DNA of 32,000 bases from Erysipelotrichaceae bacterium (lineage in GTDB: Bacteria > Bacillota_I > Bacilli_A > Erysipelotrichales > Erysipelotrichaceae): positions 1 to 32,000 of the forward strand of contig JAUVVC010000001.1 in the NCBI GenBank assembly GCA_030604855.1, written 5' to 3'. The notes beneath the pieces were generated by a model. The model was not told where the DNA came from. It saw only the letters and a list, made by a program, of their open reading frames with translations, and made no database searches. The position numbers and the translations under genes are program-made. Positions 245 to 22,617 of this stretch are shown here, one piece after another. How positions within the stretch are numbered: the stretch's first letter is position 1; every line of letters begins with the position of its first letter.

Positions 245-1429
245 ATGTCCAATTTTACCACAGAATTAATGACTGCACTTTTCAAAGGCGAAGGTGTTGA
301 AGAAATTATGCGCCTTGAGTTAGAGTCTGCGATGAATGAATTACTCAAAGTAGAACTCACCAGTTTCCTCGATTATGAGAAACATGATCCAAGGGGCTAT
401 AACAGTGGTAACTCACGAAATGGATTCTATGTCCGACAATTAAAGACGCGTTTTGGAGAAATCAGTGTCGAGATTCCACGAGATCGAAATGGAGAGTTTA
501 AACAACAGCTCATTCCATCCCATCAACGTTCCACCCAAGATTTAGAAAATATGGTGATTCAAATGTATCGACGTGGAATCACAACCGCTGAAATCGCTGA
601 ACTCATTGAGAAGATGTATGGAGCACATTACACGCCTCAAACCGTCTCTAATATGACGAAAGTGGTTCATGGCCAAGTAGAACGATTCCATAAGCGACCG
701 TTAAATGCACGATATTCTGTCATTTACTGTGATGCGACTGTTTTATCGGTACGAAGAGATAGTGTCGCAAAAGAAGCTCTTCATATCGTATTAGGCATTA
801 CCCCAGAAGGTCAAAAAGAAGTTATAGACTATCGTTTATTCCCTTCAGAATCCTGTGAGAATTACCGAGAAATGTTTAAGGATCTCAAAGAACGTGGTGT
901 ACAAGAAATACTTCTCTGTGTGAGTGATGGATTGAAAGGACTAAAGACAGTTTGTTTAGAAAACTTTCCGATGGCACGTCATCAAGCGTGTTGGGTTCAT
1001 CTTCAACGCAATGTCAATCGATTGGTTCGTGCAAGTGATAAGCGCCGTGTTATGCAAGATGTGAAATTGATCTACCAGGCATCCACACTTCAAGAAGCGA
1101 GACAACAGCTAGAAGTCGTTTTAAAGAAATACATGAAAGTGTATCCTAAAGTGATTCAACTGCTTGAGAATAACGAAGAAAGTCTCTTTAGTTTCTATGA
1201 CTTTCCTCAAGAGATTCATCCAAGCATCTATACGACAAATCTCATCGAAGGATTAAACAAACAACTCAAACGAGATACTAAACGTAAAGAACAGTTTCCG
1301 AATGAAGATTCACTTGATCGATTTGTTTGTATGAAGTTCCTAGATTACAACCAACGTTTCAGCGTAAGAATTCATAAAGGATTCGGAGTCGTAACCGCTG
1401 AACTCAATCAAATGTTTAAATCAGAATAG
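245..1429 (+). CDS. IS256-family (Mutator-type, Transposase_mut) transposase
   Basis: Full-length 394 aa. Family hallmarks are LDYEKHDPRGYNSGNSRNGFY, EIPRDRNGEF, YCDATVLSVRRD, LCVSDGLKGL, HQACWVHLQRN and TTNLIEGLNKQLKR. Confidence 0.95.
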   Translation: MSNFTTELMTALFKGEGVEEIMRLELESAMNELLKVELTSFLDYEKHDPRGYNSGNSRNGFYVRQLKTRFGEISVEIPRDRNGEFKQQLIPSHQRSTQDLENMVIQMYRRGITTAEIAELIEKMYGAHYTPQTVSNMTKVVHGQVERFHKRPLNARYSVIYCDATVLSVRRDSVAKEALHIVLGITPEGQKEVIDYRLFPSESCENYREMFKDLKERGVQEILLCVSDGLKGLKTVCLENFPMARHQACWVHLQRNVNRLVRASDKRRVMQDVKLIYQASTLQEARQQLEVVLKKYMKVYPKVIQLLENNEESLFSFYDFPQEIHPSIYTTNLIEGLNKQLKRDTKRKEQFPNEDSLDRFVCMKFLDYNQRFSVRIHKGFGVVTAELNQMFKSE

Positions 1430-1461
1430 ATTCCACCACTACACTTATTGTATGAACTAGA

Positions 1462-1493
1462 GTTTACACATAAATATTGACACTAGGGCATGC
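1462..1493. repeat. IS256-family right terminal inverted repeat
   Basis: Reverse complement gcatgccctagtgtcaatatttatgtgtaaac aligns with 120-151 (26/32). Confidence 0.75.
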
Positions 1494-1625
1494 AAATACG
1501 CGAAAAATGCTATTTCATATACAGTAAATAAAAGATTTTAAACTCATTGTTTTATACTCAAGATTTGAGCAAGTATTTCAATAGGCGTATAGTAATATAG
1601 AAAGACGGATTTAGTCATTTTTTCT

Positions 1626-2783
1626 TTACTTTAAAATGTAAAAATTAGGATCTAGAATAAACTCGCTATTTGTTTCATCAAGCCACTTATTTGAAATATT
1701 CGTTAACAATGAAAAGAGTGATGTGATCTGATAAATATAATTTGGTGTAACGCTAACAGTTTTGCACAAAAGTTTTCGATCTATTGTAAACTCCGTTATG
1801 TTTATTACCTTACCATCTGTTCGATCTCGCTCATCTTTATTCTCTAAATTCTCAAGTATAATAAATGAATGCTTTGGATTATCACTTGATAATTCCCGAC
1901 CTTTCACCGCAATTAGACTATTGTATTCAGTATCTTCGATGAACACTAGATGATTATTATAGTTTCTTGGAGAAAAATAAAAATAATATGATGTTAACCA
2001 AAATTTTAATTGTATAACACTTTCAATCCAGCTACGCGGATAATATGATGAGGATGATAGTTCTCTAATAATTTCATTAACCTCATTCGTTGTCGATTCG
2101 TACGTATCAAGAAAAAGGAACGCTGGGCAATGTATTTCTTTTAATTCTTGCTCAATTTGTTCACTTGATAGATTAGTGAATGCATTAACATTACTTAATC
2201 CCTCACTCATGTTTGTTCCTTTGAAGAAAATATTCCCTGATTTCTTTAAGATATTAAGCATATTTCCATCAATTCTCATCTTCATGTAATCATGAACAGT
2301 TTCAAATAACTTTCCTTTTAATTGAAGTGCTTTTATATTCAAAGTTATTATGCCTTCTATACGTTTAAGATCATTAATATCATTTGGGTCAAACATTGTT
2401 ATTCGATTATGTTCGAGATCGAATGGTACATCATCAATGCTTCCCATGGATGAATTGCATAAGCAAATTATACGATCCCAACCAATTGCTTTGGCTGCAT
2501 ATCCTGTTTCCAAAAGTACATTAGGATTTGGTGATTTTTTTTTATTCCCAATAACGTTGCTTATATCGGCAATAAACAATGAGCATTTGTCTATTTTTTG
2601 ATAGATGCTCGACATAATATCTGGAGAGCCAGTTAGTCCATGTGTATCTTTGTCTAATCTAATTGTGAGTTCGAAACTGTTGTCTCTCTCAAGTGATTTC
2701 AACGAGTTCTTTATAGATTTCTCAATAAAATTACGATTCTCATTTTGACTATCACTTTGCCATGAAAAGAATACTGTTTTCAT
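1626..2783 (-). CDS. Two-domain protein: N-terminal TIR-like / nucleoside 2-deoxyribosyltransferase-like domain (about aa 1-150) plus an unrecognised C-terminal domain of about 230 aa; candidate single-gene defence effector
   Basis: 385-aa ORF with SD AAGGAGA before the ATG. The N-terminus reads KTVFFSWQSD ... GSPDIMSSIYQKI ... LFIADIS ... NPNVLLETGYAAKAIGWDRIICL, the strand/loop/Glu pattern of TIR-like/NDT-fold enzymes. No TM segments are visible and the C-terminal part has no motif I recognise. Confidence 0.6.
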   Translation of the reverse strand: MKTVFFSWQSDSQNENRNFIEKSIKNSLKSLERDNSFELTIRLDKDTHGLTGSPDIMSSIYQKIDKCSLFIADISNVIGNKKKSPNPNVLLETGYAAKAIGWDRIICLCNSSMGSIDDVPFDLEHNRITMFDPNDINDLKRIEGIITLNIKALQLKGKLFETVHDYMKMRIDGNMLNILKKSGNIFFKGTNMSEGLSNVNAFTNLSSEQIEQELKEIHCPAFLFLDTYESTTNEVNEIIRELSSSSYYPRSWIESVIQLKFWLTSYYFYFSPRNYNNHLVFIEDTEYNSLIAVKGRELSSDNPKHSFIILENLENKDERDRTDGKVINITEFTIDRKLLCKTVSVTPNYIYQITSLFSLLTNISNKWLDETNSEFILDPNFYILK

Positions 2784-3076
2784 ACTTCTCCTTAACTTGA
2801 TTTACATCATACCTTATGAAAGATAATCTCAAGATTTTAATTTCTTCAGTTATTACTATTATACTGTCTTTTCAAAAGTAGTTTCGCTCTAAATTTTCTA
2901 CCAATACTTTTGGTTTTGAGTATGTCCATAATATTTTCTGAAAAAAATCTTTGCTGTGTGTTTAAAAATTCACTAAAAATTTCAATCCAAAAAAGCAACA
3001 TTATGGTGTAACTTATTGCTATTCGTCAATGTGACAATTAGCAGATTCATTTAAATTTGTTTAATGATTTTTAATA

Positions 3077-3283
3077 TTATATATTATATATTAACTCATC
3101 AATTGTGATTCGTTTTGAATTTATATGACACATCTTTACGTATATATTACTATCACGAATAATACTCAATGAAAACGATTCATGTAAATCAAAAACCTGA
3201 ATTAAATTCAAATTACAAAATTTCCAAATTTGTCCACAATTCTTACCTGTATTAAATTCAACTTCTACAATAAATAGATCCAT
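3077..3283 (-). CDS. Hypothetical 68-aa protein
   Basis: ORF preceded by a strong SD (AGAGGTGA, then an 8-nt A-run, then ATG on the minus strand). No recognisable motif. It lies between two nuclease/effector-type genes. Confidence 0.35.
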   Translation of the reverse strand: MDLFIVEVEFNTGKNCGQIWKFCNLNLIQVFDLHESFSLSIIRDSNIYVKMCHINSKRITIDELIYNI

Positions 3284-3409
3284 TTTTTTTCACCTCTATT
3301 ACTTTATACGTAAATGTTTTGAATTCTCCTTTTCAAATTTAACATTTAAATAGAAAAGTAGAACTTGAATAGAATCTCAGCCATAGTTACAAAGATGATA
3401 ATTGTCTTT

Positions 3410-4213
3410 TTAACTCTCAGTTCCTTTATTAATATAATCGATTAATTCTTTTTGCAGATCAAATTTGTGCTCAATATCAAGGTAAGTTTCAATTTGTATT
3501 ATTAACTCAGCAAGTCTATCATTAGCATGTGCGCTATTCATTCCTTTCATAAAGCGGTGTAATTGACTTCTATTAATGTTACATAAATCTTTTGCATATA
3601 GATAAACAGGTATTCTTTTATCGATCATTTCCTGAAGCTTTTTTCGATATAAATTCTTAACTTTTACATCATATCGAGTTGAACTTAGAATATTTAGTCT
3701 CAAATCATATTTAGTTGGTAAATAGTTTTCTATATTTTTATTAAGCTGTATTTTATTCGAATTTATATAAAACTTTTGAAAGTTGTCAGGCAAAATATTC
3801 AACCAAAAACTCTCTTCTTCAAAGTCAACGTTAATATAGAATTTCGTATTATATCCTTCGTTGATACTATTGTAAAAAGCTATCATCAAAGCTTCAACAT
3901 GATACGCTAATGATTGTGTATTATTCTTAGAAAAATTTGGATCACTAAAACTTCCCAATATAGAATTTTTAAAATCGCTCGGACGTAAAAGATAATCATT
4001 ATAAAGTGTACGATTACCTTTACCACTATAATGACTTGCTATTCGAGAAAGGGGATCATTACTAATACCAACATATTTTCTTTGTGTAACAATGTCTTCT
4101 ATTACATAAACGGAAATTTCTTTTCTTGCCTTTATATTTGCTTTGTTCTCATTTTTATCTTTTGTAATCGATTTAGCAATATCTCCGAACTGCAATGATA
4201 ATTGTTTTACCAT
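3410..4213 (-). CDS. GIY-YIG nuclease-domain protein with a C-terminal HTH-like module (homing-endonuclease-like architecture)
   Basis: The catalytic set is complete: VYVIED..RKYVGIS (GIY...YIG), the Arg in LSRIASH, the Glu in HVEALMIAFY, and the Asn in EGYN. The C-terminal segment VYLYAKDLCNINRSQLHRFMKG looks like an XRE-type HTH. SD is GGAGA. Confidence 0.75.
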   Translation of the reverse strand: MVKQLSLQFGDIAKSITKDKNENKANIKARKEISVYVIEDIVTQRKYVGISNDPLSRIASHYSGKGNRTLYNDYLLRPSDFKNSILGSFSDPNFSKNNTQSLAYHVEALMIAFYNSINEGYNTKFYINVDFEEESFWLNILPDNFQKFYINSNKIQLNKNIENYLPTKYDLRLNILSSTRYDVKVKNLYRKKLQEMIDKRIPVYLYAKDLCNINRSQLHRFMKGMNSAHANDRLAELIIQIETYLDIEHKFDLQKELIDYINKGTES

Positions 4214-4245
4214 AGTATCTCCAATAATAGTTTCTTTATATAAAC

Positions 4246-4274
4246 ATTATATTTATATAAGTAAACAATGTCAA
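4246..4274 (-). promoter_or_regulatory. Consensus sigma-A-type promoter for the GIY-YIG gene
   Basis: The minus strand reads TTGACA (plus 4269-4274), an exact 17-nt spacer, then TATAAT (plus 4246-4251). This sits about 33 nt upstream of the ATG at 4213. Confidence 0.65.
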
Positions 4275-4353
4275 ATAAATTATTTATCTTTGTGAATATT
4301 ATGTTTTTAAAAAGAAATAAATGTCTTATAATAATTATCAATAGGTGACAACA

Positions 4354-4569
4354 ATGGGAATGAAATATTATAAATTATTTGATCTCTTAAATCGAAGAAA
4401 TATAACAAAAACAAAAATGCGCATTGATCTTGGTATGAGTACGAAAACGCTAGCAAAGATTTCGGCTCATGAATCTTTATCAATGGAGATAATTGAAAAA
4501 ATATGTGCATATTTAGATGTTCAGCCTGGTGATATTATGGAATTTCAAAATGAGCATGTGGATATATAG
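4354..4569 (+). CDS. Small XRE-family (HTH_26 / YozG-like) transcriptional regulator
   Basis: The ATG at 4354 sits 5 nt after SD AGGTGA (the track's GTG at 4345 is less likely). Sequence NITKTKMRIDLGMSTKTLAKISAHESLSMEIIEKICAYLDVQPGDIMEF matches the short Cro/C1-type HTH with the ICxYLxxxxxDI tail. Confidence 0.8.
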   Translation: MGMKYYKLFDLLNRRNITKTKMRIDLGMSTKTLAKISAHESLSMEIIEKICAYLDVQPGDIMEFQNEHVDI

Positions 4570-4648
4570 GGGCTAAATCTATAATAAACAATACTTAATG
4601 ATAGTTTAATAATTATATGGGTAAGTTTTATTCATGACAGGGGGAAAA

Positions 4649-6652
4649 ATGTATATTTCGAAAGTAAAGATTAGAAATTTTAGAGTATTTAATAATAATG
4701 GGACAACTGCTGATTTCAAAAGAGGTGTTAATGCAATTATTGGTGAAAATAATTGTGGAAAATCTGCAATGATTGATGCAATAAGAATCGCATTTAGTAC
4801 TTCAATGTATCGTAAAGATATTTACTTTAATAATTCTGATTTTCATGTTGATATTAAAGGTGTTCGTAGCAATGAGGCGACTTTTGATATTTATTTTAAT
4901 GAAGTTCCACCTGATTTATTCGAGATTTGGAACCCTGAGGATAATAATAAAGGTGAATTTCATGTACAATATTTTACTGTAAAAACAGATGGTTCAGAGC
5001 GCATTAGATTTAGAATATGGGGTGGCCCAGATCAAGGAAATATTTTAACTTCTGAAACATTAGAAGCTATAAATTTAACATATTTAGGTGCGCTTAGAGA
5101 TGCAGATTTTGAATTAAAACCATCGAAGAATGGGAAACTAGCGAAGTTGTTTAGCTCTTTAGTAAAGACTGATGAATCAAAAAGAGCTGTTGTCGATATT
5201 TTTAAACAAGTTAACTCAAAAATCGAATCACAGGAGTCTTTTAAAAAAGTTGTGCAAACAATTAATGCTAATTTATCAGTATTAGAGCAAGATATATTAA
5301 AGCAACATATAGGTGTTGGATTAATTGAACCAAAATTTGAGTCAATAGCTGGATCATTAAGAGCGTGGTTAAACCCTAGATGGATTTTTTTACAGAAAGA
5401 TAATACGTTCATTCAAAGATTAGAGGAAATCTTCACTATCGAAGAATGGCAGTCGAATATCAAAACTGAAGTTGATGGAATATATTTTGATATTTGGTCT
5501 CTTGAGAATAAGGAAATTGATGATGATTTAAATATTGGGATTTCAAATCTATTTACGAACAAATTTGAAATTGTTCAAAATGGACTTGGGTATAATAATT
5601 TACTTTTCATGGCGACTGTTTTAGGAGACATAGAGACAGAGATATCAGATAATTTATTTAGTTTATTGCTTGTAGAAGAACCTGAGGCACATTTGCATCC
5701 TCAATTACAAGAATTAGTTCATAGTTTTTTTGAAAGTAACTCAAGTAATGTAAATGTTCAAGTGATTTATACAACACACTCTCCTACGCTTGTTTCAAGA
5801 ATTGGTATAGATAAATTAGTATTGTTATATGAAAATAATCAAGATATTGATTGTCTAACATTATCAAATAGTAAGCTTGATAGTAAAGATAAATTCTATT
5901 TAGAGAGATTTCTTGATGTAACAAAATCTCAAATGCTTTTTGCTAAAGGAATAATATTCGTTGAAGGAGTTTGTGAAGCGCTTGTAATTCCATGTTTGGC
6001 GGATTTATTGAATAAACCTTTATACAAATATGCAGTTACAGTTGTTAATGTAGATGGAGTTTCTTTCGAACCATTTGCGAACTTATTGTGTCATATTGAT
6101 AATCCAAAGAAAAAAACTATTAATTCAGTTATAATCACAGATGATGATAGATGTACTGATAAAAATGATGAATTAAACTATATCTCTAAAGATTATGATT
6201 TTGATTGTCCACCTGAAATATATGATTCAATTGCAACAAAATTAGATAGTGGTAAACCTTCAGAACGTTTTAATAAAATAAAAGAACTTTGTTTAGACGC
6301 TCACATAAAAATACAAAGTGCTCCTAAAACTTTCGAGTATGCACTTTCATTTTCACTTATAAATATTCAATATTTATTAAGTGCCATAATTGATACATAT
6401 CCAAGAGTTGGTTATGATCTTTTCGATAAAGTTGAGTCTCTTAATAATATTAGTAAAAAATCTATATGTATTTGGTTATTTATGCGTTCAAGATCAAAAG
6501 CTAAAGCAGAAATAGCTCAAGCACTTTCTAGAAGAATTATTGAGAAGAAAATATATAAAAAGAAAGATACTGTGTTTTATGAAGAGGAAATTAGCGATAT
6601 ATTCCAAGTTCCTGAGTATATAAAAAACGCTATCATAGCAGTTACAAATTAA
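4649..6652 (+). CDS. gajA: OLD-family ATP-dependent nuclease (ABC-type ATPase plus C-terminal Toprim), GajA-like
   Basis: Start taken at MYISKVKIRNFRVF after SD GGGGGAAAA. Motifs: Walker A GENNCGKS, Walker B/H-loop LLLVEEPEAHLHPQLQ, YTTHSPTLV, and Toprim IIFVEGVCEALVIP, VVNVDGVSFEPF, VIITDDDRC. Confidence 0.85.
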   Translation: MYISKVKIRNFRVFNNNGTTADFKRGVNAIIGENNCGKSAMIDAIRIAFSTSMYRKDIYFNNSDFHVDIKGVRSNEATFDIYFNEVPPDLFEIWNPEDNNKGEFHVQYFTVKTDGSERIRFRIWGGPDQGNILTSETLEAINLTYLGALRDADFELKPSKNGKLAKLFSSLVKTDESKRAVVDIFKQVNSKIESQESFKKVVQTINANLSVLEQDILKQHIGVGLIEPKFESIAGSLRAWLNPRWIFLQKDNTFIQRLEEIFTIEEWQSNIKTEVDGIYFDIWSLENKEIDDDLNIGISNLFTNKFEIVQNGLGYNNLLFMATVLGDIETEISDNLFSLLLVEEPEAHLHPQLQELVHSFFESNSSNVNVQVIYTTHSPTLVSRIGIDKLVLLYENNQDIDCLTLSNSKLDSKDKFYLERFLDVTKSQMLFAKGIIFVEGVCEALVIPCLADLLNKPLYKYAVTVVNVDGVSFEPFANLLCHIDNPKKKTINSVIITDDDRCTDKNDELNYISKDYDFDCPPEIYDSIATKLDSGKPSERFNKIKELCLDAHIKIQSAPKTFEYALSFSLINIQYLLSAIIDTYPRVGYDLFDKVESLNNISKKSICIWLFMRSRSKAKAEIAQALSRRIIEKKIYKKKDTVFYEEEISDIFQVPEYIKNAIIAVTN

Positions 6653-6659
6653 TAAAAAT

Positions 6660-8417
6660 ATGGAAAAACTAACTGAAGAACAGTCTAAGTTCATTGAAAT
6701 TGATGGTAATGTAGTGCTATGTGCTTGTCCTGGAAGTGGAAAAACATACATAATAGGAAAAAAAGTACTAAAATATTTGAAATGTTGGAACTTGAAGTAC
6801 AGTGGTGTTGCTATACTATCGTTTACAAATGTAGCGAGTAAAGAAATACAACGACAAATTGAAGAATTAGATGAAGCAAAATTATATGATTTAAATTTTC
6901 CGCATTTTAATGGAACCATAGATAGTTTCATTAATACGTTTATTTTTTTACGCTTTGGCTATTTAATGTATAAAGAAGTAGTTCAAAGACCAAAAATTAT
7001 TCATGATAACATAGGTGAAATAAACTTTCCTTATAGTGAATGTTATAAGAAACAATGTGCAAAGAATATAAATTGGTTTAAATGGAGTGGTGATCAACTT
7101 TTAAGGAATGGTAATATTATTAACTGTAATATAATAAACAAACCATGTATAGCTTACAAGAAACAAATGTTTAAAAATGGTTATGTAACTCAAGATGAAG
7201 TGCCAACTTTGGCATTAAGAATCTTAAAAAAATATCCACAAATAGCAATCGAAATAGCATATAGATTTCCAATAATTATAATTGATGAAGCTCAAGATAC
7301 CTCTCGAGAGCAACTGGAAATTTTTGAGATTATTGCTGATTGTGGAATAAACTCTGTGATTTTTGTTGGTGATCCAGATCAAGCAATTTATGAATGGAGA
7401 GATGCAACTCCAATGTATTTTTATGCAAAAATAAATGATAAGAATTGGCACCCATTATTTCTAACAGCGAATTTTAGGAGTTCCCAGAAAATATGTGATG
7501 CAACAATTAAGTTTTCGTCACATTTAATGAATAAAAGTATTAAGTCATTAGCAAAGTATGCTGATTTCGGTATAAAACCAGTACTTCTTCAAGTTAATCA
7601 AGATAAATCTAAAGAAGATATTGTTGATTGGTTTAAACACTTTTGCATTAAAAATGGAGTTGATCCTGAAAGTAAAGATGTTGCTATTTTGACACGTAGT
7701 AGAATAAATTCAGAAAGTGATATTACCGATTTGTGGAAAACAAGTGAAACAAAATATTTTGCATATGCAACATATTTGTGGCATTCTGGGTTAAGAAAAG
7801 ATGCGTTCGTTCAATGTGAAATGGGATTATTCAATTTGATGATAGGTGATTCAAATGGTCTAACTAAAGTAGATATTATATTCGAAGTTAATAAAAAGTT
7901 GGATTATAAACTATGGAAACATTTAGTTATACAAGTACTAACATTATTACCAAATTCAGAAATTGCGATTAAAACATGGAGAATAAATTTAATTAAAATT
8001 CTAGATGATTTAGTAAGAAGAGACATTATTTTCTGTACTCAAAATCGAAAAATGCAAGATATTATAAAACTAAAATCGAGGATTAAAATCGATGAAAAAT
8101 ATAGTACTGAGTTTCTTGAGAAATCAATTCGATACTATTTTGAAAAAAAATCTTCGAATGGAACAATATATTCAACAGTTCATGGTGTTAAAGGTGAATC
8201 CTATGACGCAATTTTGCTTTTAATAAATAAACTGAAAGGTAATACTTTAACTTCATCAAAATTACTAAATGGTTCTCTTGATAGTGAGCAAATACGAATT
8301 GCTTACGTAGCTATGACAAGACCAAGAAAGTTACTTGTTGTTTCAATTCCAAAACTAAGCGGAAAGAATGATTTAACAAGATTTCCAAACGAATTATGGG
8401 ATTATATTGAGATTTGA
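6660..8417 (+). CDS. gajB: UvrD/PcrA/Rep-like superfamily-1 helicase, GajB-like
   Basis: Motif I CACPGSGKTY, II IIIDEAQDTS, III FVGDPDQAIYEWRDA, IV LTANFRSSQKI, V/VI STVHGVKGESYDAILLL and AYVAMTRPRKLLVVS. It starts 7 nt after the OLD gene stop. Confidence 0.85.
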   Translation: MEKLTEEQSKFIEIDGNVVLCACPGSGKTYIIGKKVLKYLKCWNLKYSGVAILSFTNVASKEIQRQIEELDEAKLYDLNFPHFNGTIDSFINTFIFLRFGYLMYKEVVQRPKIIHDNIGEINFPYSECYKKQCAKNINWFKWSGDQLLRNGNIINCNIINKPCIAYKKQMFKNGYVTQDEVPTLALRILKKYPQIAIEIAYRFPIIIIDEAQDTSREQLEIFEIIADCGINSVIFVGDPDQAIYEWRDATPMYFYAKINDKNWHPLFLTANFRSSQKICDATIKFSSHLMNKSIKSLAKYADFGIKPVLLQVNQDKSKEDIVDWFKHFCIKNGVDPESKDVAILTRSRINSESDITDLWKTSETKYFAYATYLWHSGLRKDAFVQCEMGLFNLMIGDSNGLTKVDIIFEVNKKLDYKLWKHLVIQVLTLLPNSEIAIKTWRINLIKILDDLVRRDIIFCTQNRKMQDIIKLKSRIKIDEKYSTEFLEKSIRYYFEKKSSNGTIYSTVHGVKGESYDAILLLINKLKGNTLTSSKLLNGSLDSEQIRIAYVAMTRPRKLLVVSIPKLSGKNDLTRFPNELWDYIEI

Positions 8418-8428
8418 GTTGAACAAAA

Positions 8429-8442
8429 GATAATATATTATC
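8429..8442. promoter_or_regulatory. Perfect 14-bp palindrome GATAATATATTATC in the 37-nt helicase/nuclease gap (possible operator or internal -10 region)
   Basis: The self-complementarity was read directly. It is AT-rich, so about one such palindrome could arise by chance in this island; only its placement is notable. Confidence 0.25.
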
Positions 8443-8454
8443 GAAAGGACAAAT

Positions 8455-9192
8455 ATGAAACTGACAAATATTGTACCGACAGATTGGAGAAATCTGCAAT
8501 TTTTAGTAAGTGAATACTTTAAACAAGCTGGATATAATACTGAAGTAACAAAAAAAATCCAAATAGCAAGGGGAAGTGTTGAAGTCGATGTATATGTTAA
8601 ATCTGAATTTGACATAGCTGAAGTGTTTATTGTTGAATGTAAATTTTGGGAGACAAATATCCCGCAAGAGAAGGTACATGCATTTAGAACTGTTGTATCT
8701 GATAGTGGGGCTTCATTAGGAATAATGATTACTAAAACGGGTTATCAATCGGGTGCAAAAGAAGCATCTACTCATACAAATGTTAAGTTGTTAACATGGG
8801 ATGAGTTCCTTGAAATAATTAAGGATAAATGGGTAAAAAAAAGAACTAAGTATTTTTTAAAATTAGTTGATAAGTTGGCATTATTTTCAAATAAGTACGA
8901 TGCACCAATTCAAAATTTAACTTTAATTGAGAAAAATCTATATCTTGAAACACTTGATGAATACTCTAAACCATTTCATATTTATGAACCGTTAGGAATG
9001 TATAGTAGTTTTGTTAAAGTTGAGGATATAATTAGTAAGAACAATCTAGATTTTGATAATTATGAAAGCTTCTTTGATTCAGCTGAAGAACAACTTAAAA
9101 GATCATTGAATTTTTATTTTGATTTATTTCATATTATTGAAAAGGATAGGGAACTACCTGAAAAAACATTGTATGATATGTTTAGTCTTTAG
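8455..9192 (+). CDS. Mrr-type (Mrr_cat) PD-(D/E)xK restriction-endonuclease-fold protein with an uncharacterised helical C-terminal half
   Basis: WRNLQFLVSEYFKQAGY ... GSVEVDVYV ... FIVECKFW ... VHAFRTVV ... LGIMITKTGYQSGAKEA ... VKLLTWDEF follows the Mrr catalytic-domain order (D ... ExK). SD is AAAGGA. The last 120 aa or so carry no motif I recognise. Confidence 0.75.
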   Translation: MKLTNIVPTDWRNLQFLVSEYFKQAGYNTEVTKKIQIARGSVEVDVYVKSEFDIAEVFIVECKFWETNIPQEKVHAFRTVVSDSGASLGIMITKTGYQSGAKEASTHTNVKLLTWDEFLEIIKDKWVKKRTKYFLKLVDKLALFSNKYDAPIQNLTLIEKNLYLETLDEYSKPFHIYEPLGMYSSFVKVEDIISKNNLDFDNYESFFDSAEEQLKRSLNFYFDLFHIIEKDRELPEKTLYDMFSL

Positions 9193-20630: not shown

Positions 20631-21545
20631 TTAGAGTTTGCTTAATTCGACTGCGATTTGAGCCCCGACTTTGGCGTTGTTATAGACGAGTTGGATGTTG
20701 GAATCCAAGCTGTCACCACCTGTCAGTTCTTTGACTTTGGCTAAGAGGAAAGGGGTGCTTTCTTTACCTTTGACGCCTTGGTCGTTTTGTTGTCTAACCG
20801 CTTCAAGGATGGCGTCGTTGATGACTTTCGGATCCATTTCGTATTCCGCAGGGATTGGATTAGCCACAATCATGCCACCTTTGAGCTTCAAGTCCCATTT
20901 TGTCTTGAGGGCTTGAGCCAATTCTTTAGGTGTATCCACACGATAATCCACCCCGAAACCACTCTTGCTTGTATAGAAAGCTGGGAGCTCATCGGTTTGA
21001 TAACCAACGACCGGAACACCGTTGGTTTCAAGGTATTCAAGGGTCAAAGCAATATCCAAGATGGACTTTGCACCGGCACAGACCACCGCCACATCGGTTT
21101 GAGCCAATTCCAAGAGATCCGCAGAGATATCAAAGGTGTTTTCCGCACCTCGGTGAACACCACCGATCCCACCAGTCGCAAAGACTTTAATGCCAGCCAT
21201 GGCGGCTAGGATCATCGTGGAAGCCACAGTGGTCGCTCCGGTAAGACCTTTGGCGATGATGAAAGGAATGTCACGACGGGATGTTTTCTGCACATTCGGT
21301 GCTTTGCCTAAGAATTCGATTTCTTCTGGACTTAAACCCACCTTAAGACGTCCATTGAGGATGGCGATGGTTGCTGGTATCGCACCGTTGTCGCGAACGA
21401 TCTTCTCCACATTCAAGGCTGTTTCCACATTCTTGGGATAAGGCATCCCATGGGAGATGATGGTGGATTCGAGGGCTACGACCGCCTTGTTGTGGGCGAG
21501 GGCGGCTTTTACTTCTTCATTGATATCGAGATAGTTTTCAAACAT
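20631..21545 (-). CDS. psuG: Pseudouridine-5'-phosphate glycosidase
   Basis: [35 protein letters not shown] and [15 protein letters not shown] are signature blocks of the YeiN/PsuG (Indigoidine_A) family. Confidence 0.9.
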
Positions 21546-22617
21546 GTTTAAGCTCCTTTAGGGTTTCGTGTAATGTTAGTTCATTTAAATTCGGATTGAT
21601 GGTATCGGGATGCGAGAGGGCAAGTCGTGAAGCGGCCATCGCCACAGTGCAAGTCTCCTTGATGTCATATCCTTTAAGATAAGCGTAAACCAAGCCTGCC
21701 ATGAAGGCATCGCCCGCACCCGTCGCATTGATCACTTCAATGGCTTTGGTGGGGAAGTGATGATGGCTCTTTGCGTCAAAGACTTGAACCCCTTGCGAAC
21801 CCAAGCTGATGAAGCTGCGTTTGCATTTCAACTTCGCTCCCAGCTCAAGCAAGGGTGTCTCCGCATGACTGTTGGTCAGCACTTCGGCTTCCATTCGATT
21901 GGGTTTCAAAGTGTGAATATTCTTTAAGTGTTCCTTGATCTTTAAAGCCTTCTTCGTTGAGACCGTATCCACAAAGAACTTCGTCTTGGGATATTGAGTC
22001 AACAAATGATCCAAAACATCTTGCGAGAGATTGGTATCCAAGACAACCAACTGGGCATGTTCGATAATGGAACGTTTTGCTCGGATATGATCCACCGTAA
22101 GTTTTTCAATCGAATCCATATGATTGATGGCCAAGGCCATGTCATGCGTCTCATCCAGAATACTGAGGTAGGTTGAGGTCACTTCTCCGGAAAGCACCAA
22201 GGTATCCTGCATGTTCAAGCCGATCGCCTGTGCCTCCTTGAGGATCTTCTGTCCATAAGGATCATCCCCAATCACACTCATCAGTCGCGTTGGAATGCCC
22301 AAGCGGGCGCAGTTCTCCGCAATGTTGCGGCCGACACCGCCCAAAGACACCTTCACGGTCCCAATGTTCGAATCCTTATGTATCAGCTTCTCTTTAGGGA
22401 AACCTTGGATGTCGACGTTGGACCCCCCGATCACCAGAACATAGGGTTCATCTTGAACGATGTAGCCCTTGCCCAAGAGATAACCTTTCTTGAGCAGATT
22501 GGTGATGTGCACCGCAACGGAGGATCGGGTGATGCCTAAGCGGGAGGCGATGTCATTTTGTGAAATAGTGGGTTCTTGTTTTAAGATGTTTAAGATTTCT
22601 TGTTCACGTTGTGTCAT
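21538..22617 (-). CDS. psuK: Pseudouridine kinase (PfkB family) with an N-terminal winged-HTH extension
   Basis: The HTH reads [43 protein letters not shown]. PfkB motifs are [10 protein letters not shown] and [13 protein letters not shown]. It overlaps psuG by 8 nt. Confidence 0.85.

Follow-up and report, generated by a model that had tools for sequence, protein, structure and literature searches.

We analysed a gene on the minus strand of a 32,000-nucleotide (nt) stretch of DNA from an Erysipelotrichaceae bacterium (contig JAUVVC010000001.1, positions 1 to 32,000; this whole stretch is referred to as the window). The gene, hereafter the target, encodes a 385-amino-acid (aa) protein composed of an N-terminal TIR-like domain and a large C-terminal domain, and we propose, with a probability of about 0.55, that this protein is a self-contained, single-polypeptide NADase that defends the cell by abortive infection, similar to SpbK, TIR-V, TIR-IX and Evangelion. 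Both the defence role and the NADase chemistry are what we infer from the comparisons described below. According to this model, the C-terminal domain (aa 156-385) would sense a feature of phage infection, with a multimeric phage protein or some other molecule specific to infection as the probable cue; sensing would lead, by analogy, to oligomerisation that brings the N-terminal TIR-like domains together, and the clustered domains could then form a composite active site around residue E92. Hydrolysis of NAD+ would deplete the cell of this cofactor and halt phage replication at the expense of the cell. This activation logic was taken from the precedents of SfSTING and SpbK, and the SpbK paper gives it as a general rule that accessory domains oligomerise to unite TIR domains (PMC12847820). 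The sensor-effector layout gains independent support from the finding that the same C-terminal domain also occurs behind two transmembrane (2TM) helices in place of the TIR-like domain. The new elements are this C-terminal domain and its presence in 2TM proteins, TIR domains of the PF10137 type being familiar.

The target gene and its N-terminal TIR-like domain

An earlier note on this DNA, made from the sequence alone, had described an open reading frame (ORF) of 385 aa at 1626-2783 with several quoted motifs, its own Shine-Dalgarno sequence and a 293-nt upstream gap. We found all of these on the minus strand: the ORF begins with ATG, a strong Shine-Dalgarno sequence (AAGGAG) precedes this start, and the gap extends to a 68-aa ORF (Table 1). 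The target ORF was confirmed to be a real and intact gene rather than a chance reading frame. Homologue searches returned 627 database proteins at E<=1e-3, the majority of them full length (385-400 aa), and the target protein could be aligned with homologues of this size from end to end. Among 81 diverse sequences of the family, 21 alignment columns were invariant, including that of E92, and a crude pN/pS of 0.27, calculated against a relative with 98% DNA identity (locus L107), indicated purifying selection on the target. The promoter-like stretch at 3000..3029 was kept in locus L019, although an IS256-family element separates it there from all sequence upstream of window position 3114.

The N-terminal domain belongs to the TIR fold group and is of the CAP12/Pycsar type, an assignment that is solid at the level of the family and that agrees with the earlier placement of this domain among the TIR and nucleoside 2-deoxyribosyltransferase (NDT) folds. 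When the window protein was scanned against Pfam at E<=10, PF10137 (STIR clan) was the sole match and stayed below its gathering cut-off. This family was matched by 78 of the 81 relatives (E<0.01; best 7.2e-6), PF10137 is among the precomputed annotations of several homologues, and the PADLOC model for the 'Effector TIR' of the cyclic-oligonucleotide-based antiphage signalling system (CBASS) matched 34 of the 81 weakly. A model of the full protein, built with AlphaFold2 from the 81-sequence alignment (predicted local distance difference test, pLDDT, 86; predicted template modelling score, pTM, 0.76), gave the N-terminal domain a beta-alpha-beta topology. Its top Foldseek matches in the PDB were TIR-STING (7un8, 7e-5; 9lmq), NDT, DNPH1 and the TIR-APAZ protein of SPARTA, all with a probability of 1.0 and with alignments of ~155-165 columns, which correspond to the N-terminal domain alone. 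The top match among the viral structures of BFVD was a protein annotated as a CAP12/PycTIR TIR (6.7e-9). A PADLOC match of aa 1-82 to 'RexA' (E 0.0088) was dismissed as chance, since it was absent in all 81 relatives.

The glutamate that the earlier note had singled out as catalytic, E92, lies within NPNVLLETGYA (family block NPNVLxExGYA), downstream of LFIADIS, and was invariant in both a 25-sequence and the 81-sequence alignment. In the AlphaFold2 model it is found where the third helix (87-100) begins, and this would correspond to aC, the place of the catalytic Glu. The other residues invariant in the 81 sequences were D44, T47, G52, P54, D73, S75, N86-P87-N88, G94, A96, P120-F121 and R127. 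In SfSTING, the NAD+ pocket is made up of F6, S10, R78, N80, E84 and D110 of the partner subunit, and the catalytic E84 is located on aC, the usual Glu position of TIR-like hydrolases (PMC9402430). The spacing N88-x-x-x-E92 in the target is that of N80-x-x-x-E84 in SfSTING, and F5, S10, N86, N88, E92 and the PFD120-122 loop, all invariant or almost so, appear to mirror the SfSTING pocket. SfSTING (PMC9402430) and Dictyostelium TirC (PMC13142454) are both NADases with PF10137-type TIR domains that are activated on oligomerisation. A beta-hairpin extension in the CC loop is distinctive for CAP12/Pycsar TIRs (PMC13142454); DSSP assigned two 2-residue strands (76-77 and 84-85; local pLDDT ~76-77) between bC (69-73) and aC of the modelled target, consistent with such a hairpin.

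The C-terminal domain, its 2TM relatives and known systems

The C-terminal domain was modelled with higher scores than the full protein (aa 133-385: pLDDT 90, pTM 0.84), with a long terminal helix following the alpha/beta subdomain. It had been described in the earlier note as aromatic-rich, free of transmembrane segments and unrecognisable, and each of these descriptions held. Phe, Tyr and Trp made up 13.0% of its residues, compared with 8.1% in the N-terminal domain, and no transmembrane segment was found in the protein (maximum KD19 0.87). Pfam, NCBIfam and PADLOC did not recognise the domain, sequence searches of the PDB with the single sequence and with the 81-sequence profile returned nothing significant, and Foldseek found no fold match among 350,542 PDB chains (best E 0.39, TM-score 0.13). 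On the basis of this best E-value, a STING, SAVED, CARF, CNB or APAZ receptor fold was ruled out; bacterial STING entries were present in the Foldseek library and were retrieved through the TIR domain and not through the C-terminal domain.

A profile search of 1.84 billion cluster representatives with the C-terminal domain returned 338 clusters (50% identity), and the N-termini of 148 representatives among the matches listed were classified. Some 28-33 of these had a TIR-like N-terminus, while ~73 had 1-2 predicted transmembrane helices within the first ~60 residues, directly followed by the C-terminal domain, in proteins of ~285-300 aa; the remaining classified representatives were fragments. 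The TIR and 2TM forms have a conserved core in common (K168, D172, G/A221-F222, N302, W367, E374 and D378). In a crude neighbour-joining tree of the C-terminal domain, built with strict N-terminus labels, the two types were intermingled, with a minimum of 5 changes between them (bootstrap range 4-7). This interchange on a common C-terminal domain suggests that the domain serves in sensing or regulation and that killing is the task of an N-terminus that can be exchanged. Alternation of TIR and transmembrane effectors on one sensor domain is known for STING (TIR-STING and TM-STING) and for Pycsar (PycTIR and PycTM). We entertain, as a tentative and perhaps doubtful extension of the proposal, that the C-terminal domain is a new immune sensor fold absent from the PDB, which would detect a conserved cue of infection on its own and be combined interchangeably with a TIR-like NADase or a two-helix membrane effector.

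No recurrent cyclase or other partner was found for the 2TM relatives among 128 neighbours, in an analysis able to list any family with at least two members. RadA/Sms was considered as a 2TM partner and ruled out, as it reflects the housekeeping radA-ispDF synteny of a single lineage. Some variants of ~600 aa carry an extra, apparently helical extension of ~215 aa, without annotation, on the C-terminal side of the C-terminal domain (proteins P0059, P0066, P0083, P0148, P0158 and P0159; loci L046 and L047); these come from the B. cereus group, Paenibacillus and others.

Several known systems resemble the target in part. SpbK (YddK), carried by ICEBs1 of B. subtilis, an integrative and conjugative element (ICE), is a single protein that is both required and enough for defence; in it a sensor domain without enzymatic activity is joined to a TIR NADase, and it is activated by clustering on the dodecameric phage portal (PMC12847820). 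The target family shares with SpbK the single protein, carriage on ICEs and the pairing of a sensor with a TIR domain, its own function being predicted. The domain order is reversed in SpbK, where a four-helix bundle of 94 aa comes first and the TIR is C-terminal, whereas the proposed sensor of the target has ~230 aa of mixed helical and alpha/beta structure and its TIR is of the CAP12/Pycsar type (PF10137); no sequence similarity between the two was detected. In E. coli, single-protein TIR defence has been shown experimentally for TIR-V, for TIR-VI and for TIR-IX, and TIR-V and TIR-IX sense portal proteins (PMC11350192). These are described as short TIR proteins, and our comparison with them is by description. 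Evangelion (Eva01, DUF4062) is likewise a single gene borne on mobile elements, with proposed NAD+ depletion and abortive infection, as in our reading of the target. Unlike Evangelion, the target had no DUF4062 match in the Pfam scan at E<=10, and its auxiliary region is a large, conserved and independently folding domain that also occurs with transmembrane N-termini.

The solved structure closest to the N-terminal domain is TIR-STING (CBASS Cap12, SfSTING; 7un8, 9lmq). With TIR-STING and PycTIR the target shares PF10137, the N-terminal position of the TIR and, judging from the alignment, probably the Glu position and the pocket residues, and with TM-STING and PycTM it shares the alternation between effector types. 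Unlike in those systems, the C-terminal domain is not STING- or CNB-like, and a CD-NTase or cyclase is neither adjacent in the window nor recurrent in the loci sampled. In Thoeris, an effector gene (SIR2-SLOG, Macro-TM or others) lies in an operon with the TIR gene; no such effector gene was found in the window, no partner recurred in 105 loci, and no member of the target family matched the PADLOC ThsB model. With SPARTA, only the TIR part aligned to TIR-APAZ chains (~161-166 columns), and the window contains no Argonaute. The PADLOC models PDC-S35 and CBASS 'Effector TIR' gave weak matches (1e-4 to 1e-6) in some relatives, covering only the core at aa ~59-150, and did not match the window protein at E<=0.001; the TIR-like part of the PDC-S35 models is C-terminal (profile positions ~173-237 of 264-278).

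Relatives of the N-terminal domain on E. coli IncF plasmids are also laid out otherwise than the target. A 275-aa hypothetical protein (locus L105, 3656-4483; pETEC_35, NC_009787.1), located near a RelE/ParE toxin-antitoxin (TA) pair, has its TIR-like part in the C-terminal half, which is 39% identical to the TIR-like core of the target, a layout like that of PDC-S35.

Because SpbK, TIR-V/VI/IX and Evangelion already combine a TIR or TIR-like effector and a variable sensor in one protein, the design of the target is not categorically new. The earlier claim of an undescribed architecture can be kept for the domains themselves, the general design being documented in those systems. The note's further reading, a single-polypeptide sensor-effector defence protein, stands with regard to the layout, which the TIR/2TM exchange supports; the defence role we infer.

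Genomic contexts and competing explanations

Relatives that share the N-terminal domain or more are encoded in at least 516 species-representative genomes. The full two-domain form occurs across many phyla (Bacillota, Bacteroidota, Campylobacterota and others) and is common on ICEs and integrative and mobilizable elements (IMEs) of gut Clostridia. We sampled its contexts by 9 protein look-ups with Pfam-labelled neighbours, in 80 species-level genome loci, by BLASTP clustering of the three genes on either side at 105 loci and by Pfam annotation of 146 immediate neighbours in 38 species. Neither the BLASTP clusters nor the Pfam annotations contained a partner gene that recurred across lineages, and the all-against-all BLASTP comparison ruled out a hidden partner among unannotated neighbours. 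No CD-NTase or cyclase family was recurrent among the 146 neighbours, where any family with at least two members would be listed, nor was an Argonaute.

The most common neighbour was guaA (GMP synthase), found at 19 loci in several lineages (e.g. L008, L012, L028-L031 and L064-L072). Its position and orientation varied (at -2 it shared the strand of the family gene, at +1 it lay on the opposite one), which fits an insertion hotspot for islands and not an operon, and guaA was ruled out as a functional partner for the same reason. From this pattern, islands carrying a target-family gene seem to integrate repeatedly at the guaA flank. In one lineage the family gene was the sole cargo of an element with an integrase and Mob_Pre; elsewhere it was cargo of ICEs or IMEs of the ParA/resolvase/MobA type, with AbiH or Abi_2 nearby, and one identical protein (P0037) had three distinct left flanks, one of them a conjugative type IV secretion region. 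Other homologues had restriction-modification (R-M) genes, PemK, SIR2_2, Fic, AbiH and Abi_2 as neighbours, and PADLOC (E<=1e-10) identified Mokosh, type IIG R-M, PD-T4-6, SoFic, ThsB, MADS and PDC-S66 genes among the 146.

Lineage-restricted neighbours were also observed upstream of family members. An XRE-type helix-turn-helix (HTH) gene stood there in one clade of Clostridia (8 loci). In a divergent Streptococcus subfamily (11 loci), a gene for a protein of 671 aa that neither Pfam nor PHROG recognised was always located directly upstream on the same strand (L008, 5935-7950; also L009-L011, L064-L066 and L069-L072). Located between guaA and an R-M cluster, this gene occurs in S. oralis, S. 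mitis, S. parasuis and S. orisratti, and together with the divergent Streptococcus target it may form a lineage-specific two-gene system.

These contexts bear on an explanation that we consider unlikely, although it is the best of the alternatives, namely that the target is an orphan effector whose C-terminal domain binds a diffusible nucleotide signal (a cyclic nucleotide, a cyclic ADP-ribose isomer or a comparable molecule) that an enzyme encoded at another site produces. Binding of the ligand would lead to a TIR filament and to NAD+ depletion, as happens with TIR-STING or PycTIR. The TIR subtype is that of CBASS and Pycsar effectors, the alternation of TIR and transmembrane N-termini on one sensor is the STING and Pycsar pattern, and the conserved polar residues K168, D172, N302, E374 and D378 could build a ligand pocket. 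However, no cyclase or CD-NTase family recurred among the 146 neighbours of the TIR form or the 128 of the 2TM form, and none was present in the window; carriage as the only cargo of small mobile elements better suits a self-sufficient unit; and the C-terminal domain showed no likeness to the STING, SAVED, CARF or CNB folds of the PDB.

Somewhat more improbable, in our judgement, is that the N-terminal domain, rather than being an NADase, acts as an N-glycosidase on nucleotides or nucleosides, like DNPH1, NDT or MilB, and once activated would cleave (deoxy)nucleoside monophosphates or modified phage nucleotides and so starve or damage phage DNA synthesis. The Foldseek E-values for NDT, DNPH1 and the CMP and hydroxymethyl-CMP hydrolases were near those for TIR, and D73...E92-x-G-Y-A resembles what we take to be the nucleophile motif of NDT and DNPH1. 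The profiles nevertheless placed the family in PF10137, and the NDT Pfam family was matched neither by the window protein (E<=10) nor by the 81 relatives. TIR-STING was the best structural match, the pocket residues appear to agree with the NAD+ pocket of SfSTING, and the putative short beta-hairpin at 76-85 between bC and aC would be a feature distinctive of CAP12/Pycsar TIRs (PMC13142454).

A still poorer account denies the target a role as phage sensor and sees in it either a toxin that serves the maintenance or competition of mobile elements or a regulator of NAD metabolism outside immunity; the C-terminal domain would then restrain the toxin as long as the element is retained and no competitor appears. 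Frequent carriage on ICEs and IMEs, the island hotspot, TA modules close by in some loci and several housekeeping-like contexts are all compatible with it. Against this, no conserved antitoxin-like gene adjoins the family, the architecture and TIR subtype are those of known phage-defence effectors, a Gabija locus adjoins the target in the window, and defence genes lie beside several homologues.

The window island and the standing of the defence reading

In the window, the target is located within a low-GC island (26-33% GC at ~1.4-9.3 kb of the window, compared with 39-49% elsewhere) with an IS256-family element at its boundary (Table 1). Pfam, NCBIfam and PADLOC scans found no ThsA, cyclase, CD-NTase or Argonaute anywhere in the 32,000 nt, in agreement with the earlier statement that ThsA and cyclase partners are missing. 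A complete-looking Gabija locus occupies 4345-9192.

Table 1. Coordinates of the target gene, its parts and the neighbouring features in the window
Feature	Coordinates	Strand	Description	Basis
TIR-like plus C-terminal domain gene (target)	1626..2783	-	385 aa, ATG start, stop codon 1626-1628	ORF list, homologue alignment
N-terminal TIR-like domain, CAP12/Pycsar type, predicted NADase effector	2379..2783	-	aa 1-135	PF10137 relatives, Foldseek
Linker helix between the domains	2319..2378	-	aa 136-155	DSSP on AlphaFold2 model
C-terminal domain, proposed sensor/regulatory module	1629..2318	-	aa 156-385; helical bundle, then alpha/beta subdomain	AlphaFold2 model
Codon of E92, putative catalytic Glu	2508..2510	-	opens helix 87-100 (aC)	Sequence reading
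Shine-Dalgarno AAGGAG	2788-2793	-	4 nt before target ATG	Sequence reading
Promoter-like site TTGACG-18-CATAAT	3000..3029	-	~215 nt upstream of ATG, 10/12	Consensus match only
68-aa ORF	3077-3283	-	directly upstream of target, 293-nt gap	Gene-called in L018, L020, L107, L108
GIY-YIG nuclease-like gene	3410..4213	-	267 aa; 627 nt upstream of target, same strand	Pfam 9.3e-7
HTH_26 gene	4345-4569	+	Gabija locus	
GajA	4634-6652	+		PADLOC 7e-168
UvrD-type GajB	6660-8417	+	Gabija locus	
Mrr_cat restriction-endonuclease-like gene	8455-9192	+	downstream of GajB, same low-GC island	
IS256-family element	245-1489		transposase 245-1429; end at ~1489, 136 nt downstream of target stop codon	

Two ORFs lie upstream of the target on its own strand. 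The 68-aa ORF had no Pfam or PHROG match, and its status as a real gene is uncertain; since only one nucleotide differs from L107, selection on it cannot be judged. The 267-aa GIY-YIG protein matched the PHROG 'homing endonuclease with GIY-YIG motif' (4.8e-6), its gene was under purifying selection (pN/pS 0.11), and it falls in a 90%-identity cluster of 80 members, one of which comes from an Erysipelotrichaceae metagenome-assembled genome; a free-standing homing endonuclease and a defence nuclease are candidate roles. It is a lineage-specific neighbour of the target and not a family-wide partner. The earlier description of the target as solitary therefore holds in that no partner is conserved across lineages, but not for its closest relatives, those at least 97% identical in the target protein, in which the GIY-YIG gene and the 68-aa ORF accompany it.

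A block of 3.06 kb (1490-4553) containing the target, the 68-aa ORF, the GIY-YIG gene and the HTH gene was 96.6% identical in L107 and L108. Next to this block stands Gabija in the window, as opposed to DUF6414 and an AAA_2/Torsin-like ATPase in L107 (4736-6860) and L108 (722-2846). Homology to both loci stops at ~4553, close to the HTH gene's 3' end, and this fixed breakpoint suggests an HTH-anchored hotspot for the exchange of defence cassettes. An IS256 element ends at ~1489 in the window, whereas in L019 (2-101) an IS256 end abuts window position 3114 within the 68-aa ORF, leaving the target intact and parted from the GIY-YIG gene, which indicates insertion on either side of the target in different strains. 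Relatives free of the element had an AT-rich stretch of ~1.9 kb without any ORF of at least 64 aa downstream of the target (L019, 1593-3495; L107, 9586-10678). This stretch, in which neither tandem repeats of note nor an Rfam match (E<=1) was found, was for that reason dropped as a non-coding partner; sequence decay or a non-coding feature without annotation may account for it. Farther away in the window, an Indigoidine_A-like gene (pseudouridine-5'-phosphate glycosidase type) lies beside a PfkB kinase-HTH fusion (20631-22617, minus strand), and this pair and the nearby Fe-hydrogenase and Fe-ADH genes are ordinary housekeeping genes that suggest an anaerobic Firmicute as host.

The least probable of the alternatives, a lineage-specific cassette of the GIY-YIG, 68-aa and TIR-like proteins, possibly with the divergent HTH regulator, would account for the constancy of the block beside differing systems and for purifying selection on its genes (the single difference in the 68-aa ORF leaving that one aside), but we regard it as a minor and very unlikely one because the linkage was confined to relatives with at least 97% identity of the target protein, in which it is perhaps simply inherited, and is broken by IS256 in L019; no homologue of at most 88% identity with usable flanks had the GIY-YIG neighbour, and large gaps (293 and 126 nt; 627 nt from the GIY-YIG gene to the target) with promoter-like sites separate the genes.

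Several observations weigh against our proposal that the target is a single-protein defence NADase. Every member of the family is labelled "hypothetical protein" in all sources, and the window protein itself scored below the gathering cut-off of PF10137 (19.5 bits, E 0.001; cut-off 24.7). E92 is the putative counterpart of the catalytic Glu of TIR domains by motif spacing and secondary-structure position. The N-terminal domain also resembles NDT and DNPH1 folds by Foldseek (2a0k, 8qc0 and DNPH1), and since these match about equally well as TIR, a nucleotide instead of NAD+ may be the substrate. The defence association of the homologues, seen as neighbour counts only, was modest: the majority of the 146 immediate neighbours were not defence genes, some loci were plainly housekeeping (e.g. 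in B. cereus), and the 2TM relatives had few defence neighbours, with housekeeping RadA/Sms and ispDF as their only repeated neighbour. A tblastn search of 50,697 phage records with the target gave no match and so lent no support to a prophage hotspot. Finally, the upstream GIY-YIG gene and 68-aa ORF were linked to the target only in relatives at least 97% identical in the target protein, and a multi-gene unit is thus conceivable in the lineage of the window.

Standalone TIR proteins are a blind spot of present discovery pipelines: a systematic TIR survey of 2025 and a domain-centric screen of 2026 excluded single-gene or standalone candidates, and PADLOC 2.0 has no model for the target family. 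If the target does act in defence, the catalogue of sensor domains gains a new entry, and the TIR/2TM exchange, if true, opens a second family without a recognisable immune domain. Should the sensor reading of the C-terminal domain be correct, this would be a widespread and unrecognised one-protein defence family, including ~70 clusters of 2TM proteins without a known defence domain. The compact design, with one gene and one invariant Glu, makes direct tests easy; the family is a widespread candidate with what would be a new sensor domain.

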